Sequence record: PZ154896.1
DNA: 64,000 nucleotides
Origin: a phage
Direction: 5' to 3' (one strand)
Shown here: piece by piece, positions 40,704-47,425 of the stretch
How positions within the stretch are numbered: position 1 is the stretch's first letter
Layout of the letters: every line of letters starts with the position of its first letter
Translations under genes and position numbers: made by a program
The notes under the pieces: model-generated
Told to the model about the DNA's origin: nothing
What the model saw: the letters and a program-made list of their open reading frames with translations, nothing else
The model's database searches: none

Positions 40704-41660
40704 TTATTTGAAAGGTTTTACCATATGGAAATTTTGTTTGAAACGTTTGACGTAATCATCATGTCCTAAGCTTTGGTACATACTTACTACTTTGCTGTAG
40801 TTTTCCCAGGCATACTCACGGAACCAACCAGAGGTGATGCTTGTACAGACTTTTTCTAATGCCATCATAAAACTGGCTTCAGGGTTAATTTTAAAGTCAT
40901 TAGGAATCTGAGAACGTTCTAATGCTAGTACACATGATTCTTCGTATACACCGGCCAATTTGACCATTTCTGGTAATGATTCGAACTTCTCACGTGAGGT
41001 CATGACTTCAGAACCGTCTTTCATATAAAATGTATACGCTGGACGGTCTGTTAGTGCAATGGCTTCATGAATAGTATCATGGTCATATGTATAGATATCA
41101 TCTTTAAAGAACGCACTTTTAGAAGTGTCAAGAACCGGGTGAGCATAGTTCAAGGTTTCTTTCTGGCGTTTCAGCATAATTTCAGTAAGTTCATCGTTCA
41201 GTGTAACACCTTTACCACGAAGATACTGAATATGGTTCATAGTCTTTAAAAAGAACGGATTATTTTTCTTGAAACGATGAGACATCTTAATTGCAAGACA
41301 TATCTCAGGAGTTGCCCAGTAAAACCCATTCAAACGGTCTTTAGACAAATGTTTCTTGGCGTATTTTAAAAGGTCATAAGAAGACGTGAAATCTTCAGGA
41401 GTGAGTTCACCGACTAATTCACGGACATTAGTGATTGCCGGAACAATATACGCTTCAAAATGAGTTTCGCGTCCATTATGGAAGCATTTGAAAACTTGGA
41501 CATCAGGGTTATCTTGATGAACATATACACCCATCATTTGATTTTTGAATGTATTCCAAGAACCTTGGTCTGCAATAAAGTCCCAGTCACTATTTTTGAT
41601 AGCGTTAGAATCAATAAGACCATGATAGTGAAGTGCACGAGAACCAATAACTAACATCAT
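40704..41660 (-). CDS. hypothetical protein
   Basis: 318-aa ORF, no motif I can assign. Confidence 0.55.
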   Translation of the reverse strand: MMLVIGSRALHYHGLIDSNAIKNSDWDFIADQGSWNTFKNQMMGVYVHQDNPDVQVFKCFHNGRETHFEAYIVPAITNVRELVGELTPEDFTSSYDLLKYAKKHLSKDRLNGFYWATPEICLAIKMSHRFKKNNPFFLKTMNHIQYLRGKGVTLNDELTEIMLKRQKETLNYAHPVLDTSKSAFFKDDIYTYDHDTIHEAIALTDRPAYTFYMKDGSEVMTSREKFESLPEMVKLAGVYEESCVLALERSQIPNDFKINPEASFMMALEKVCTSITSGWFREYAWENYSKVVSMYQSLGHDDYVKRFKQNFHMVKPFK

Positions 41661-41688
41661 AATATTTTCCTCGGATTAATTCATTAAC

Positions 41689-41928
41689 TTAAATTTCACG
41701 ACATGCGATATCATATTCATCCCAGAGGTCATCGTGTGAAGCCTCTACCAATGGAACGATTGTACCATTTATGTCTTCATTATAAGGGCAAATTGTACAG
41801 TGCGCATCTTCGAATCGAATGCCTTTGTGTTCAGATTTTTTATAACGCATATCGAATATCTTTGCAAACTTTTCACGAGTAATGGTTTTAGCAACCACTT
41901 CGGTTCCAACACTTTCGTAATAAATCAT
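41689..41928 (-). CDS. hypothetical protein
   Basis: 79-aa ORF with Cys/His pairs (HCTICPYNED). Confidence 0.5.
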   Translation of the reverse strand: MIYYESVGTEVVAKTITREKFAKIFDMRYKKSEHKGIRFEDAHCTICPYNEDINGTIVPLVEASHDDLWDEYDIACREI

Positions 41929-41947
41929 TGTGGACTCCGTTTAATTT

Positions 41948-41987
41948 GATAGGACTACTATAACATAGCCCTATCTTGTTGTAAACT
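41948..41987 (-). promoter_or_regulatory. early promoter cassette (family A)
   Basis: GATAGGACTAcTATAACATAGcCCTATC palindrome plus GTTTAC. Confidence 0.5.
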
Positions 41988-41990
41988 GTT

Positions 41991-42188
41991 TTAGCAAGAA
42001 TAACTAGATGATACCCAGCCTTGAACAGTAATACTATTATTTGATACCGAGATCGCGTTCTGGAGATTCAGACCTGCGTTATCTTCAATCCATAATGTAA
42101 CTTCTTCGCGTTCTTCTGTTGCAATTTGGAACAGGTTTTCCAGGGCAGCTACTGCCGTACGTACAGCACAATCTAATTCACGAGACAT
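41991..42188 (-). CDS. small protein, C-terminal W-x-SS-x-x-C family
   Basis: 65 aa; ends ...QGWVSSSYSC. Confidence 0.5.
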   Translation of the reverse strand: MSRELDCAVRTAVAALENLFQIATEEREEVTLWIEDNAGLNLQNAISVSNNSITVQGWVSSSYSC

Positions 42189-42197
42189 ATGATTTCC

Positions 42198-42470
42198 TTA
42201 GCAAGTGTGAGAAGATGCAATCCAACCACCAGTTTCGAGGCTCAGATTGTAGTCGTATTGGTAAACGTCAGCCCATTCAGCATAGCCGTTTTTTGTACAA
42301 CGTTCAAGATCGGCTTTAAGATGTCCGGGTGAATGATAGGTTCCACCCATACCATAAGCTGGACACAAGTCGAATGTTGTGTTTTGTTTATCAGCAATTT
42401 CTTTGGCAGCCTCAATAGCTGCATAGATTTTTGCTACAGCTTCAGCCAGTTCGGTTTGTTCTTTAGACAT
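42198..42470 (-). CDS. small protein, C-terminal W-x-SS-x-x-C family
   Basis: 90 aa; ends ...GGWIASSHTC. Confidence 0.5.
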   Translation of the reverse strand: MSKEQTELAEAVAKIYAAIEAAKEIADKQNTTFDLCPAYGMGGTYHSPGHLKADLERCTKNGYAEWADVYQYDYNLSLETGGWIASSHTC

Positions 42471-42479
42471 AGTGATTCC

Positions 42480-42785
42480 TTAGCACAACGCAGAAGACGA
42501 AACCCAAGCACCTTCAGTAATAACGTAACCATTACCTTCACGCTTAACATCGCCACCATTATTTTCAATTTCATTTTTCATCCACTGGGATACGATTTCA
42601 CCCTTAGGATAATAAGTACGACCGCTACCATAATCACCTACAGAAAATGATACGGCGTATTGGTCTGCGATCTTTGTTGCTTCTTCTTCGATACGTTCAG
42701 CTTGATTCAGAAGTTTATAAATTGCATCTGAAGCGGATTTGGCATCATTAAACTCTGGTACTTTAATTTCAATAATCTTACTCAT
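42480..42785 (-). CDS. small protein, C-terminal W-x-SS-x-x-C family
   Basis: 101 aa; ends ...GAWVSSSALC. Confidence 0.5.
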   Translation of the reverse strand: MSKIIEIKVPEFNDAKSASDAIYKLLNQAERIEEEATKIADQYAVSFSVGDYGSGRTYYPKGEIVSQWMKNEIENNGGDVKREGNGYVITEGAWVSSSALC

Positions 42786-43141
42786 TTTCTACATTCCTTA
42801 ATAAAGTTTTCTATTGTTTCATTTTCACGTCTAGCTAGGAGTTCATTATAACTAATCATTTGAGAAGCGTAAACCTTTTTATTTTTCTTGTTATGGTTTA
42901 TAAAATCGTAGTAAAAATAGACTACAGTACAAAATGATGCGATGGATGCAAAGGCTTGGGTATACCGTAAGTCCTGCCATTGGTCTGTGAATCCACCAGT
43001 GTTCCCTATAAATCCTAACACAACGCCGTCAATAAGAAATCCAACTAATCCAAAGGCAAATCCCATGCCAATACTCATAATAAAAATTAGAATGTTCTCA
43101 CCAAGAGAAGGCCATACGGTTAAGAGTTGAGGCTTTTGCAT
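42782..43141 (-). CDS. membrane protein, FIxECR C-terminal family
   Basis: 119 aa; transmembrane helices; ends ...IENFIKECRK. Confidence 0.55.
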   Translation of the reverse strand: MQKPQLLTVWPSLGENILIFIMSIGMGFAFGLVGFLIDGVVLGFIGNTGGFTDQWQDLRYTQAFASIASFCTVVYFYYDFINHNKKNKKVYASQMISYNELLARRENETIENFIKECRK

Positions 43142-43545
43142 CTTATTTCCTTAACGAATTCCATAGCTTCTTCATATTCATACTTTTTAACAGCTTCATC
43201 ATACTGAGCTTGGGCTTTTGCGCACTGAACTTTCCATTCTCTTAATCGGGCTCTGTGATGACGTCCTTGGTACCAATATCCCACCCAGTTAATAGGCATT
43301 AATAAAAATGGTACAATAAACGACCCGGCTATAATAAGTAAAAACACTGCATCAGACGATATAACTTCACTAGAATCTAAAACAGCTCCTATAATCATAA
43401 AGATTAAAAATGCTAAAGCTAAAATAGGGCCAAATAGTACTTCATTTGGGATTAATTTACGCTTGTATTCGTATGCCCAGGGCTTAATTGGCATGTACAG
43501 GGTTGGCTTTGACATATTCTCTACATTCCATAATAAATTGCTCAA
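43120..43545 (-). CDS. membrane protein, FIxECR-like C-terminus
   Basis: 141 aa; two transmembrane helices; ends ...MEFVKEIRCKSLNS. Confidence 0.5.
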   Translation of the reverse strand: MSNLLWNVENMSKPTLYMPIKPWAYEYKRKLIPNEVLFGPILALAFLIFMIIGAVLDSSEVISSDAVFLLIIAGSFIVPFLLMPINWVGYWYQGRHHRARLREWKVQCAKAQAQYDEAVKKYEYEEAMEFVKEIRCKSLNS

Positions 43546-44101
43546 GGATTAAATTGTTAGTGAAATTAGGACTAACAACCATGGTTTCATAAAGCGCATC
43601 AATAGCACTTAAAGCATCAACTCTTTTAAGCAAAGGCTTGCCTTCATACATAGTTTCAGAATCGACGATTAACGTAAAGTAATATTTTTTATTATCGACT
43701 AGAACTTCAGTATCGATATAAAACATGTTAGACCTTAAGAGCTTATCTCTAAAACCATAATAATCTTCAGAGCGTTCGCTGATATATTCCCATTCAGTGT
43801 TTAAACAACAAACAGACCATGTAGGAGCAACGAAATCAGTGAATCTAATATCATGGTCTGCAACTAGTTTAGCAATAGCTCCGATATCATGAATCATAAT
43901 ACCTGGGGCTAATAAAGATTTTCGGTTATTTGCATATTCAGTTGTCTCATAAGAAGACGACCAGTACCATTTACGTCCAGTTGCAACATATCGTAATGAA
44001 TCAACTAAAGACGTAGGTGGATTTACCTTATTTCGGAACTCTTCGAACATTGAGTCAATATCATTATTTTGGTTTCGCATGTTAACTCCTTTATTATCCA
44101 A
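43484..44101 (-). CDS. hypothetical protein with FIxECR-like C-terminal motif
   Basis: 205 aa; ...LILEQFIMECREYVKANPVHAN; overlaps previous gene by 62 nt. Confidence 0.5.
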   Translation of the reverse strand: MDNKGVNMRNQNNDIDSMFEEFRNKVNPPTSLVDSLRYVATGRKWYWSSSYETTEYANNRKSLLAPGIMIHDIGAIAKLVADHDIRFTDFVAPTWSVCCLNTEWEYISERSEDYYGFRDKLLRSNMFYIDTEVLVDNKKYYFTLIVDSETMYEGKPLLKRVDALSAIDALYETMVVSPNFTNNLILEQFIMECREYVKANPVHAN

Positions 44102-47270: not shown

Positions 47271-47347
<77 letters not shown>

Positions 47348-47350
47348 GAT

Positions 47351-47425
47351 TGGTGACCCTGGCTGGTTTCGATCCAGCTACCTATCAGTTATGAGCTGAC
47401 AGCTCTCCCATTGAGCTACAGGGCC
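47351..47425 (-). tRNA. tRNA-Met (anticodon CAU; could be Ile2 if lysidine-modified), CCA encoded
   Basis: Manual fold: acceptor GGCCCUG/CAGGGUC, D-stem GCUC/GAGC, anticodon loop CUCAUAA, T-arm GCUGG-AUCGAAA-CCAGC; 3 nt from tRNA-Arg. Confidence 0.8.

Follow-up and report, generated by a model that had tools for sequence, protein, structure and literature searches.

Small phage proteins with a conserved terminal cysteine and their genetic linkage to a MenT-like nucleotidyltransferase

The three genes and the Cys-tail family

The stretch of DNA analysed here (the window; 64 kb, sequence record PZ154896.1) comes from a Mosigvirus, an RB69-like T-even phage. Its minus strand carries three tandem small open reading frames (ORFs), together spanning 41991-42785 and named here ORF3, ORF2 and ORF1 from the upstream end, whose products share a C-terminal tail that finishes on a cysteine. 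Downstream of the trio, on the same strand, is a gene for a 318-residue predicted nucleotidyltransferase (NTase; 40704-41660). The trio belong to a large family of phage proteins, which we call the Cys-tail family, and what is new here is that this phage-only family is near-obligately coupled to a MenT-like NTase. The trio and its parts are as follows, with the tail codons read directly from the sequence.

42480..42785, minus strand: ORF3, 101 amino acids (aa), ends ...EGAWVSSSALC; the 'GDYGSGRTYYP' type of the Cys-tail family
42483..42506, minus strand: ORF3 tail codons W V S S S A L C, then a TAA stop at 42480-42482
42471..42482, minus strand: ORF3/ORF2 junction, TGC TAA GGA ATC ACT ATG; TAAGGA Shine-Dalgarno sequence, 9-nucleotide spacer, ATG of ORF2
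42198..42470, minus strand: ORF2, 90 aa, ends ...TGGWIASSHTC; the 'AYGMGGTY' type of the family
42201..42224, minus strand: ORF2 tail codons W I A S S H T C, then a TAA stop at 42198-42200
42189..42200, minus strand: ORF2/ORF1 junction, TGC TAA GGA AAT CAT ATG; architecture as at the ORF3/ORF2 junction
41991..42188, minus strand: ORF1, 65 aa, ends ...VQGWVSSSYSC; a minimal family member with helix, strands and tail, without the YG loop
41994..42017, minus strand: ORF1 tail codons W V S S S Y S C, then a TAA stop at 41991-41993

The initial annotation described these as three tandem small genes sharing the C-terminus G-W-(V/I)-(S/A)-S-S-x-x-Cys. Both their positions and their tails are confirmed: all three proteins end W-x-[SAP]-S-S-x-x-C, and the Cys is the last residue in each. 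When the whole window was scanned in six frames for stop-to-stop frames that are 30 aa or longer and terminate in W..[ST][ST]..C, W.[AS]SS or [ST][ST]..C, the result was exactly ORF1, ORF2 and ORF3, and no other frame in the 64 kb. Since only the trio has the tail, chance is not a credible explanation for it. The annotation also held that the bodies are divergent and that the tail is what is kept. The lengths (65-101 aa) are as it described, but the homology goes beyond the tail: an A..IA[DT] motif is present in an N-terminal helix of all three, a Y-G-x-G-[GR]-T-Y loop is common to ORF2 and ORF3, and pairwise BLASTP gives E-values of 4.7e-6 for ORF3 against ORF2 and of 4e-4 to 3e-3 for ORF1 against the other two. 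Among the PHROG profiles, phrog_899 matches ORF3 (E 1.8e-22) and ORF2 (E 4e-18), and phrog_4882 matches ORF1 (E 1.6e-36), both being listed in PHROGs as of unassigned function; a hidden Markov model (HMM) of the family finds the ORF1 orthologue in locus L001 with an E-value of 4.4e-6. Searches of the trio against Pfam, NCBIfam and PADLOC gave nothing above threshold, and no Pfam family, solved structure or paper was found for the family. The three are real genes and, on these alignments, ancient paralogues of a phage-only family, of which the 'AYGMGGTY' type represented by ORF2 is the most frequent worldwide.

The packing of the trio is operon-like. Both internal junctions read TGC-TAA-GGA-N6-ATG, with the ATG 9 nucleotides past the preceding stop and the TAA stop lying within the TAAGGA Shine-Dalgarno sequence, and translational coupling across the ORF3/ORF2 junction is likely. 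ORF3 in turn starts within an ATGA that also contains the stop codon of the e.3 homologue upstream. No Shine-Dalgarno sequence is found downstream of ORF1.

Alignment and profile searches place the trio in a widely conserved family. An exhaustive profile search (E <= 1e-3) identified at least 541 clusters at the 50% identity level, which clearly contradicts any lack of conservation in related phages; nearly all of these are 75-120 aa long, and have their own last residue aligned to the last position of the profile. For analysis of conservation, proteins from the profile search were pooled with the family ORFs of the loci described below, giving 352 distinct sequences. The chain ends exactly at the Cys in 340 of them (97%), and one residue further on in another 8. 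Within the tail, Trp(-7) is conserved in 92% of members, Ser(-4) in 95% and Ser(-3) in 92%, and this tail is kept across proteins that are otherwise only about 25-30% identical. The members are acidic, with a median isoelectric point (pI) of 4.4, and 183 of the 352 have no second Cys. The family can thus be defined as small (about 65-120 aa) acidic α/β proteins with the C-terminus G-x-W-x-S-S-S-x-x-Cys-COOH.

The constraint on the tail acts on the protein and not on the DNA, because among 79 distinct tail DNA sequences the Ser sites are encoded by TCN as well as by AGY, and the Cys by either TGC or TGT. A DNA-level constraint imposed by the overlapping TAAGGA was considered, and is ruled out by the use of all six Ser and both Cys codons and by the lack of a Shine-Dalgarno sequence after ORF1. 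The spacing between the Ser-Ser pair and the Cys is variable (W-x-S-S-S-x-x-C, W-x-x-S-S-C and W-x-S-S-x-C all occur), while the terminal position of the Cys is constant.

It is worth adding that there is a 'double-tail' subfamily of about 75 aa, which has an internal D-W-x-[NS]-S-[SD]-C-Y-G-E motif together with a terminal W-x-x-S-S-C. It was found at 29 loci and is absent from the window. In Dhakavirus-like, Aeromonas and other phages its genes (for example L006:5105-5329, L031:5730-5957 and L026:5709-5954) are placed after the main Cys-tail genes and before the NTase gene.

AlphaFold2 predicts ORF3 to be a compact α/β domain, with a predicted local distance difference test (pLDDT) score of 91.4. 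The tail is modelled as a strand (residues 93-96) followed by a helical turn (97-100), with a pLDDT of about 88 that falls to 67 for the last residue. On this prediction the tail is part of the fold, packed in rather than forming a free appendage, which qualifies the earlier description of a Cys following a Ser-rich stretch.

The model raises the question of whether the tail is purely structural, with the Trp anchoring the last strand, the serines capping the terminal helical turn, and no enzyme acting on it; the terminal Cys could then join subunits of an oligomer through a shared metal ion, an iron-sulfur cluster or a disulfide. The fairly high confidence with which the tail is placed inside the fold is in keeping with this proposal, as is the long N-terminal helix, which could drive oligomerisation, and the single Cys per chain in 183 of the 352 members would permit a metal site between chains only. 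However, structure rarely demands that a chain end exactly at one residue in 97% of members at about 25% identity, and the proposal leaves the linkage to the NTase, described below, unexplained. The variable Ser-Ser/Cys spacing also tells against it: that this spacing varies while the Cys stays terminal argues for a functional end group over a fixed packing geometry. We therefore regard a purely structural tail as quite unlikely.

The nucleotidyltransferase gene and its neighbours

40704..41660, minus strand: DUF7277+DUF7275 NTase gene, 318 aa; Pol-beta-fold domain (G6-S7, D25-x-D27, E69) plus helical domain

Pfam assigns two domains to the 318-aa protein, DUF7277 (E 3e-27) and DUF7275 (E 5e-79). 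The residues G6-S7, D25-x-D27 and E/D69 are kept in 51 of 51 homologues, and the protein has both of the features that define the Pol-beta superfamily, namely the G-[SG]...D-x-[DE] pattern with a third acidic residue, and the NTase fold. The fold is MenT/AbiEii-like, and the catalytic triad is intact. A sequence search against the PDB found no relative and no match to MenT chains, and literature searches on DUF7275, on the RB69 ORFs, and on a C-terminal cysteine in a phage or NTase setting turned up nothing relevant. The NTase family comprises at least 2,875 clusters. The gene occurs in 734 phage records; among 185,579 bacterial and archaeal species genomes it was found at just two loci, both of them on phage-like contigs.

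The linkage between the two families was analysed from both sides. Starting from the NTase, 80 viral loci were collected whose NTases are 38-97% identical to that of the window. The genomes represented range from about 99 kb to about 390 kb, and include sizes of about 150 kb, about 170 kb and 350-390 kb. The family HMM detects between one and six Cys-tail ORFs in 74 of these, all on the same strand as the NTase gene and nearly all within 2 kb upstream of it. Four of the six HMM-negative loci have divergent Cys-tail ORFs directly upstream, bringing the total to 78/80; of the other two, one locus does not extend upstream of the NTase gene, and only L024 is truly without a family gene. In the reverse direction, a degenerate DNA pattern for YGMGGTY fell inside family ORFs at 41 loci, and the NTase gene is downstream on the same strand in all 22 of those that have at least 3 kb of downstream DNA. 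Distant metagenomic contigs provide independent examples: L003 and L004 have family members, with extra Cys-tail paralogues, and a DUF7277+DUF7275 gene a few genes downstream, and another independent case is given by L166 and P0050.

When the plus-strand ORFs of the 80 loci were clustered, the NTase was present in 80 and the Cys-tail family in 74, the next cluster being the double-tail variant with 29. As these two families alone are widely common to the loci, their adjacency is selected, and not merely inherited synteny. The Cys-tail family is thus near-obligately coupled to the NTase, a pattern which suggests that the two form a conserved two-part phage module. Some loci hold six Cys-tail paralogues (L069:413-3421, L077:4579-7537 and L082:4506-7367), of which five are in tandem up to the start codon of the NTase gene and one is just downstream of that gene.

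No Cys-tail genes were found beside the distant DUF7275 homologues of actinophages (Gordonia and Streptomyces phages), KVP40 and DSS3_PM1; the Gordonia phage Toniann (L158), Streptomyces phage Wakanda (L159) and DSS3_PM1 (L161) loci are examples of homologues without Cys-tail partners. This implies that the small proteins depend on the enzyme, and not the reverse.

The helical C-terminal domain of the NTase has a cluster of invariant residues (K125, H128, D193-H194-D195, H198, E240-E241, E248-R249, K270 and T273). In five distant homologues all of these are kept except D193, which is V or E in two, and K270, which is R in one. The cluster looks like a metal or phosphate site. Assignment of the domain as an HD domain, from its H...HD...H...EE residues, has no support from Pfam. 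For four further residues, C272, K132, R165 and R281, invariance is limited to the clade that has Cys-tail genes as neighbours, and position 272 is I or V in four of the five distant homologues, which have no such neighbours. This is a weak hint that these residues may make direct contact with the acidic, Cys-ended partners, with phylogeny as a confounding factor.

The surroundings of the distant homologues provide clues to the function of the enzyme family. Those of the Gordonia and Streptomyces phages and DSS3_PM1 adjoin a tRNA cluster, or have a polynucleotide kinase or RNA ligase gene within a few kb; the KVP40 homologue has no tRNA genes, RNA ligase or polynucleotide kinase nearby. Taken together, these neighbours hint at an RNA-end-related role for DUF7275 enzymes. 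They also bear on the idea that the Cys-tail proteins are sulfur carriers, in which the terminal Cys would carry a persulfide, as does the C-terminal-arm Cys of TusE/DsrC, and thiolate a nucleic acid activated by the enzyme. The lone Cys at the chain end recalls the penultimate Cys of DsrC/TusE, and several phages do have tRNA genes, RNA ligase or polynucleotide kinase in the vicinity of a gene of the NTase family. Nevertheless, there is no similarity in fold or sequence to DsrC, TusE or TusA, the known thiolation enzymes are PP-loop ATPases and not Pol-beta NTases, Pfam scans of neighbouring ORFs found no cysteine desulfurase, and the 'sulfurtransferase' label on a neighbouring gene (see below) has no support from Pfam. 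We consider such a role very improbable.

Two other possible connections were considered and rejected. The T4 genes nrdC.11 (whose product is labelled 'nucleotidyltransferase') and mobD.x show no HMM similarity and are not T4 counterparts; nrdC.11 (L168:435-1445) does have a G-S...D-V-D-F motif and, being HMM-unrelated to DUF7277/DUF7275, encodes a different phage NTase. A link to the arabinosyl-hydroxymethylcytosine (arabinosyl-hmC) DNA modification of RB69, or to 5-hydroxycytosine modification, was likewise discarded: those pathways use gp52:53, and the papers on them omit these ORFs.

At least 139 phage records span the region 41500-43600 at 95-99% identity, with orthologues of the trio annotated there, and the identity to Shigella phage phi25-307 over this region is 98.6%. 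In RB69 the counterparts are ORF139c/138c (for ORF3), ORF137c (ORF2) and ORF136c (ORF1), situated between the e.3 and e.2 homologues, while in T4 e.2 and e.3 adjoin with nothing between them. The ORF3 orthologue of the RB69 reference (L002:5001-5307, equivalent to NC_004928 69734-70040) is split into RB69ORF139c and ORF138c, and the 71-aa RB69ORF139c product has no Cys tail; the split is either a frameshift or a sequencing error. Similarly, the ORF2 orthologue P0046 of Escherichia virus vB_Eco_mar005P1 has 75 aa and ends ...KTAMLNGLTFTNTTTT in place of the Cys tail, and is apparently a frameshifted copy, which indicates that single paralogues can be lost.

In the window, one further gene lies between the trio and the NTase gene:

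41689..41928, minus strand: 79-aa gene (phrog_3723), between the trio and the 318-aa gene; not a Cys-tail family member

Its product is acidic, with an H-C-T-I-C-P motif and a near-terminal Cys (...DIACREI), and the gene is preceded by a match to a T4-early-like promoter (41957-41985, minus strand; TTTACA-17-TATAGT with a TG extension). It occupies this position solely in close T-even relatives. The ORF, which ends ...DLWDEYDIACREI, was considered as a degenerate fourth paralogue and rejected, as its score against the family HMM is -1.1 and it is conserved in close relatives only.

Upstream of the trio by about 4.5 kb, on the same strand, are two tRNA genes (Arg-TCT and Met/Ile2-CAT; 47271-47425, minus strand). 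The e.4 homologue (43120-43545, minus strand; L001:7621-8016, F27_0136 of vB_Eco_F27) is a predicted membrane protein that one GenBank record labels 'sulfurtransferase'; this label has no Pfam support and is seemingly an annotation artefact. Genes of the region also bear the labels 'prohead assembly scaffold protein', 'major capsid protein' or 'tail completion protein' in some GenBank records (P0207 from Klebsiella phage vB_KpnM-VAC36, HX01 NC_018855, and vB_EcoM_JQD51 PV204681); these structural labels are probably annotation errors.

Possible roles of the Cys-tail proteins

In the MenT family, NTases are under the control of small proteins whose genes lie immediately upstream (PMC10435456, PMC11375011). 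One of these is MenA1, a 68-aa protein with a long helix at its centre, which induces MenT1 to auto-phosphorylate (PMC10435456, PMC11375011). The explanation that we favour, with a confidence a little short of even, is that the Cys-tail proteins are similarly direct protein partners of the NTase, and that the tail is what is recognised. They may regulate the activity of the NTase, as MenA1 does for MenT1, or alternatively they may be acceptor substrates that the NTase nucleotidylates or phosphorylates. Either way, what the enzyme is presented with would be the tail, with its Trp anchor, Ser-Ser pair and terminal Cys bearing a free carboxylate. From the arrangement of the genes and the conservation of the tail we infer a physical interaction and a role for the tail in it, and possibly some chemistry on its Ser or Cys. 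That several old paralogues are retained, three here and as many as six elsewhere, points to more than one partner or output per enzyme, without redundancy among them.

The initial annotation had suggested that the tail could be a modification site, a metal site or a recognition tag. That it is a functional determinant is upheld by the exact ending at Cys in 340/352 members and by the selection at the protein level; an intramolecular multi-Cys metal site or disulfide is excluded, because most members (183/352) have one Cys only. The conservation of the tail, together with the NTase linkage, fits a modification site or recognition tag better than chance conservation.

A number of observations weigh against a direct partnership. 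The Cys-tail proteins have no similarity in sequence or fold to the MenA antitoxins, and PF08843 (AbiEii/DUF1814) does not reach threshold with the NTase, giving a sub-threshold match in just one of the 51 homologues (E 0.043). The packing of the ORF3 tail into the predicted fold is less expected of a segment that enters an active site. The NTase locus L024 has no family gene, and, conversely, the family member L165 has 1.7 kb of downstream DNA without an NTase. Finally, in the window the 79-aa gene and its own promoter-like site separate the trio from the NTase gene, so that here the two are not, strictly speaking, translated as a single unit.

A more specific version of the partnership is a phage-restricted protein-modification system, in which the MenT-like NTase would covalently modify the invariant tail of its partner proteins. 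This could take the form of O-nucleotidylation or phosphorylation of Ser(-3)/Ser(-4), or of chemistry involving the thiol and carboxylate of the terminal Cys, and the outcome would be small proteins tagged with a nucleotide or a thioether, whose targets would belong to the host or the phage. We judge this unlikely, though with some plausibility, and see a similar, real chance that the terminal-Cys tail reflects a new protein chemistry.

Modification could be carried further, as in ribosomally synthesised and post-translationally modified peptides (RiPPs). A tail Ser would be O-nucleotidylated or phosphorylated and eliminated to dehydroalanine, to which the Cys would add, forming an S-x-x-C thioether ring like that of lanthionine or S-aminovinyl-cysteine (AviCys). 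Tandem precursor-like genes beside a modifying enzyme are the classic RiPP layout, Ser(-3)-x-x-Cys(0) is spaced as in lanthionine and AviCys rings, and Ser(-3) and Ser(-4) are 92-95% conserved. On the other hand, ORF3 is predicted to be a well-folded domain and not a leader-plus-core peptide, and Pfam analysis of 18 neighbouring ORFs found no dehydratase, cyclase, HFCD/LanD flavoprotein, protease or exporter. The Ser-Cys spacing, moreover, is inconstant, many members ending W-x-x-S-S-C. A RiPP-like precursor thus seems a highly improbable description of these proteins.

A different explanation is that the small proteins are independent host-directed effectors (anti-defence or takeover inhibitors), whose terminal thiol-plus-carboxylate plugs a metal-dependent host active site. 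The NTase linkage would then reflect a mere shared pathway or co-regulation. The proteins are small and acidic (median pI 4.4) and are encoded among the early genes of a variable accessory region, as phage inhibitors typically are, several diverging paralogues would fit an arms race, and a single Cys stands at the very C-terminus in 97% of members. The frameshifts (RB69 ORF139c/138c and P0046) show each paralogue to be dispensable, as would be expected of such effectors. Near-obligate adjacency to one enzyme gene across very different genomes, with nothing else conserved nearby, is however not expected of them, and the proteins have no PADLOC match and no similarity to known anti-defence proteins. 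This explanation therefore also appears unlikely, while retaining some plausibility.

The linkage between NTase and Cys-tail proteins is of wider interest because the NTase gene is found in hundreds of virulent phages, including T-even relatives used in phage therapy, jumbo phages, and Acinetobacter, Pseudomonas and Stenotrophomonas phages, and neither the Cys-tail nor the NTase family has an assigned function, structure or literature. A lone, strictly terminal Cys after Trp-x-Ser-Ser-Ser is an unusual invariant motif, and with its coupling to a MenT-like enzyme, what was a nameless set of hypothetical proteins becomes a defined question about two components. If the enzyme is indeed regulated by the small proteins, or modifies them, then the NTase/small-protein control logic would extend from bacterial toxin-antitoxin systems to lytic phages, and could show how these phages manipulate the translation apparatus or repair it. 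Should the tail prove to be chemically processed, this would be new protein chemistry.

Comparison with known systems

PHROGs, the existing classification, divides the Cys-tail family between two entries, and mentions neither its terminal motif nor its linkage to the NTase. There are partial resemblances to several better known systems. Like the precursors of lanthipeptides and AviCys peptides, the Cys-tail proteins are encoded by tandem small genes beside a predicted modifying enzyme, and mostly have Ser-x-x-Cys at the C-terminus. The sulfur-relay proteins DsrC and TusE are small, with a key conserved Cys at the extreme C-terminal end, and the Cys-tail proteins are like them in this C-terminal Cys, but do not have the DsrC fold with its flexible C-terminal arm.

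Nucleotidyltransferases are a class of enzyme that modifies hydroxyl groups. In GlnD-PII uridylylation and in MNT-HEPN AMPylation, an NTase of the Pol-beta fold acts on a hydroxyl of a small partner encoded beside it. By analogy, the Tyr/Thr-rich loop of the Cys-tail proteins (Y-G-x-G-G-T-Y-Y) and their Ser-Ser pair could serve as acceptors. The Cys-tail proteins have no similarity in sequence or fold to PII or HEPN, and their ORF1-type members have no Tyr loop; with respect to type VII HEPN-MNT systems, there is no Pfam HEPN match and no RX4-6H motif in the Cys-tail alignment.

The MenAT and AbiE systems (MenT1-MenA1, MenT3/TglT-MenA3 and AbiEii-AbiEi) are two-gene modules of bacterial chromosomes and plasmids that serve addiction or defence, with a growth-inhibitory NTase that extends the 3' ends of tRNA and is neutralised by the protein encoded upstream, whereas the module described here is phage-only. 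The 318-aa NTase is larger than MenT1, and its C-terminal domain contains an invariant His/Asp/Glu cluster of its own. The Cys-tail proteins are unrelated in sequence and fold to MenA and AbiEi (COG5340), they occur as one to six paralogues, and MenA has no counterpart of the terminal-Cys motif. Thus, while the module falls outside the membership of all of these systems, by analogy it would work most like a MenAT-type pair of NTase and small protein, or like the GlnD-PII and MNT-HEPN pairs.

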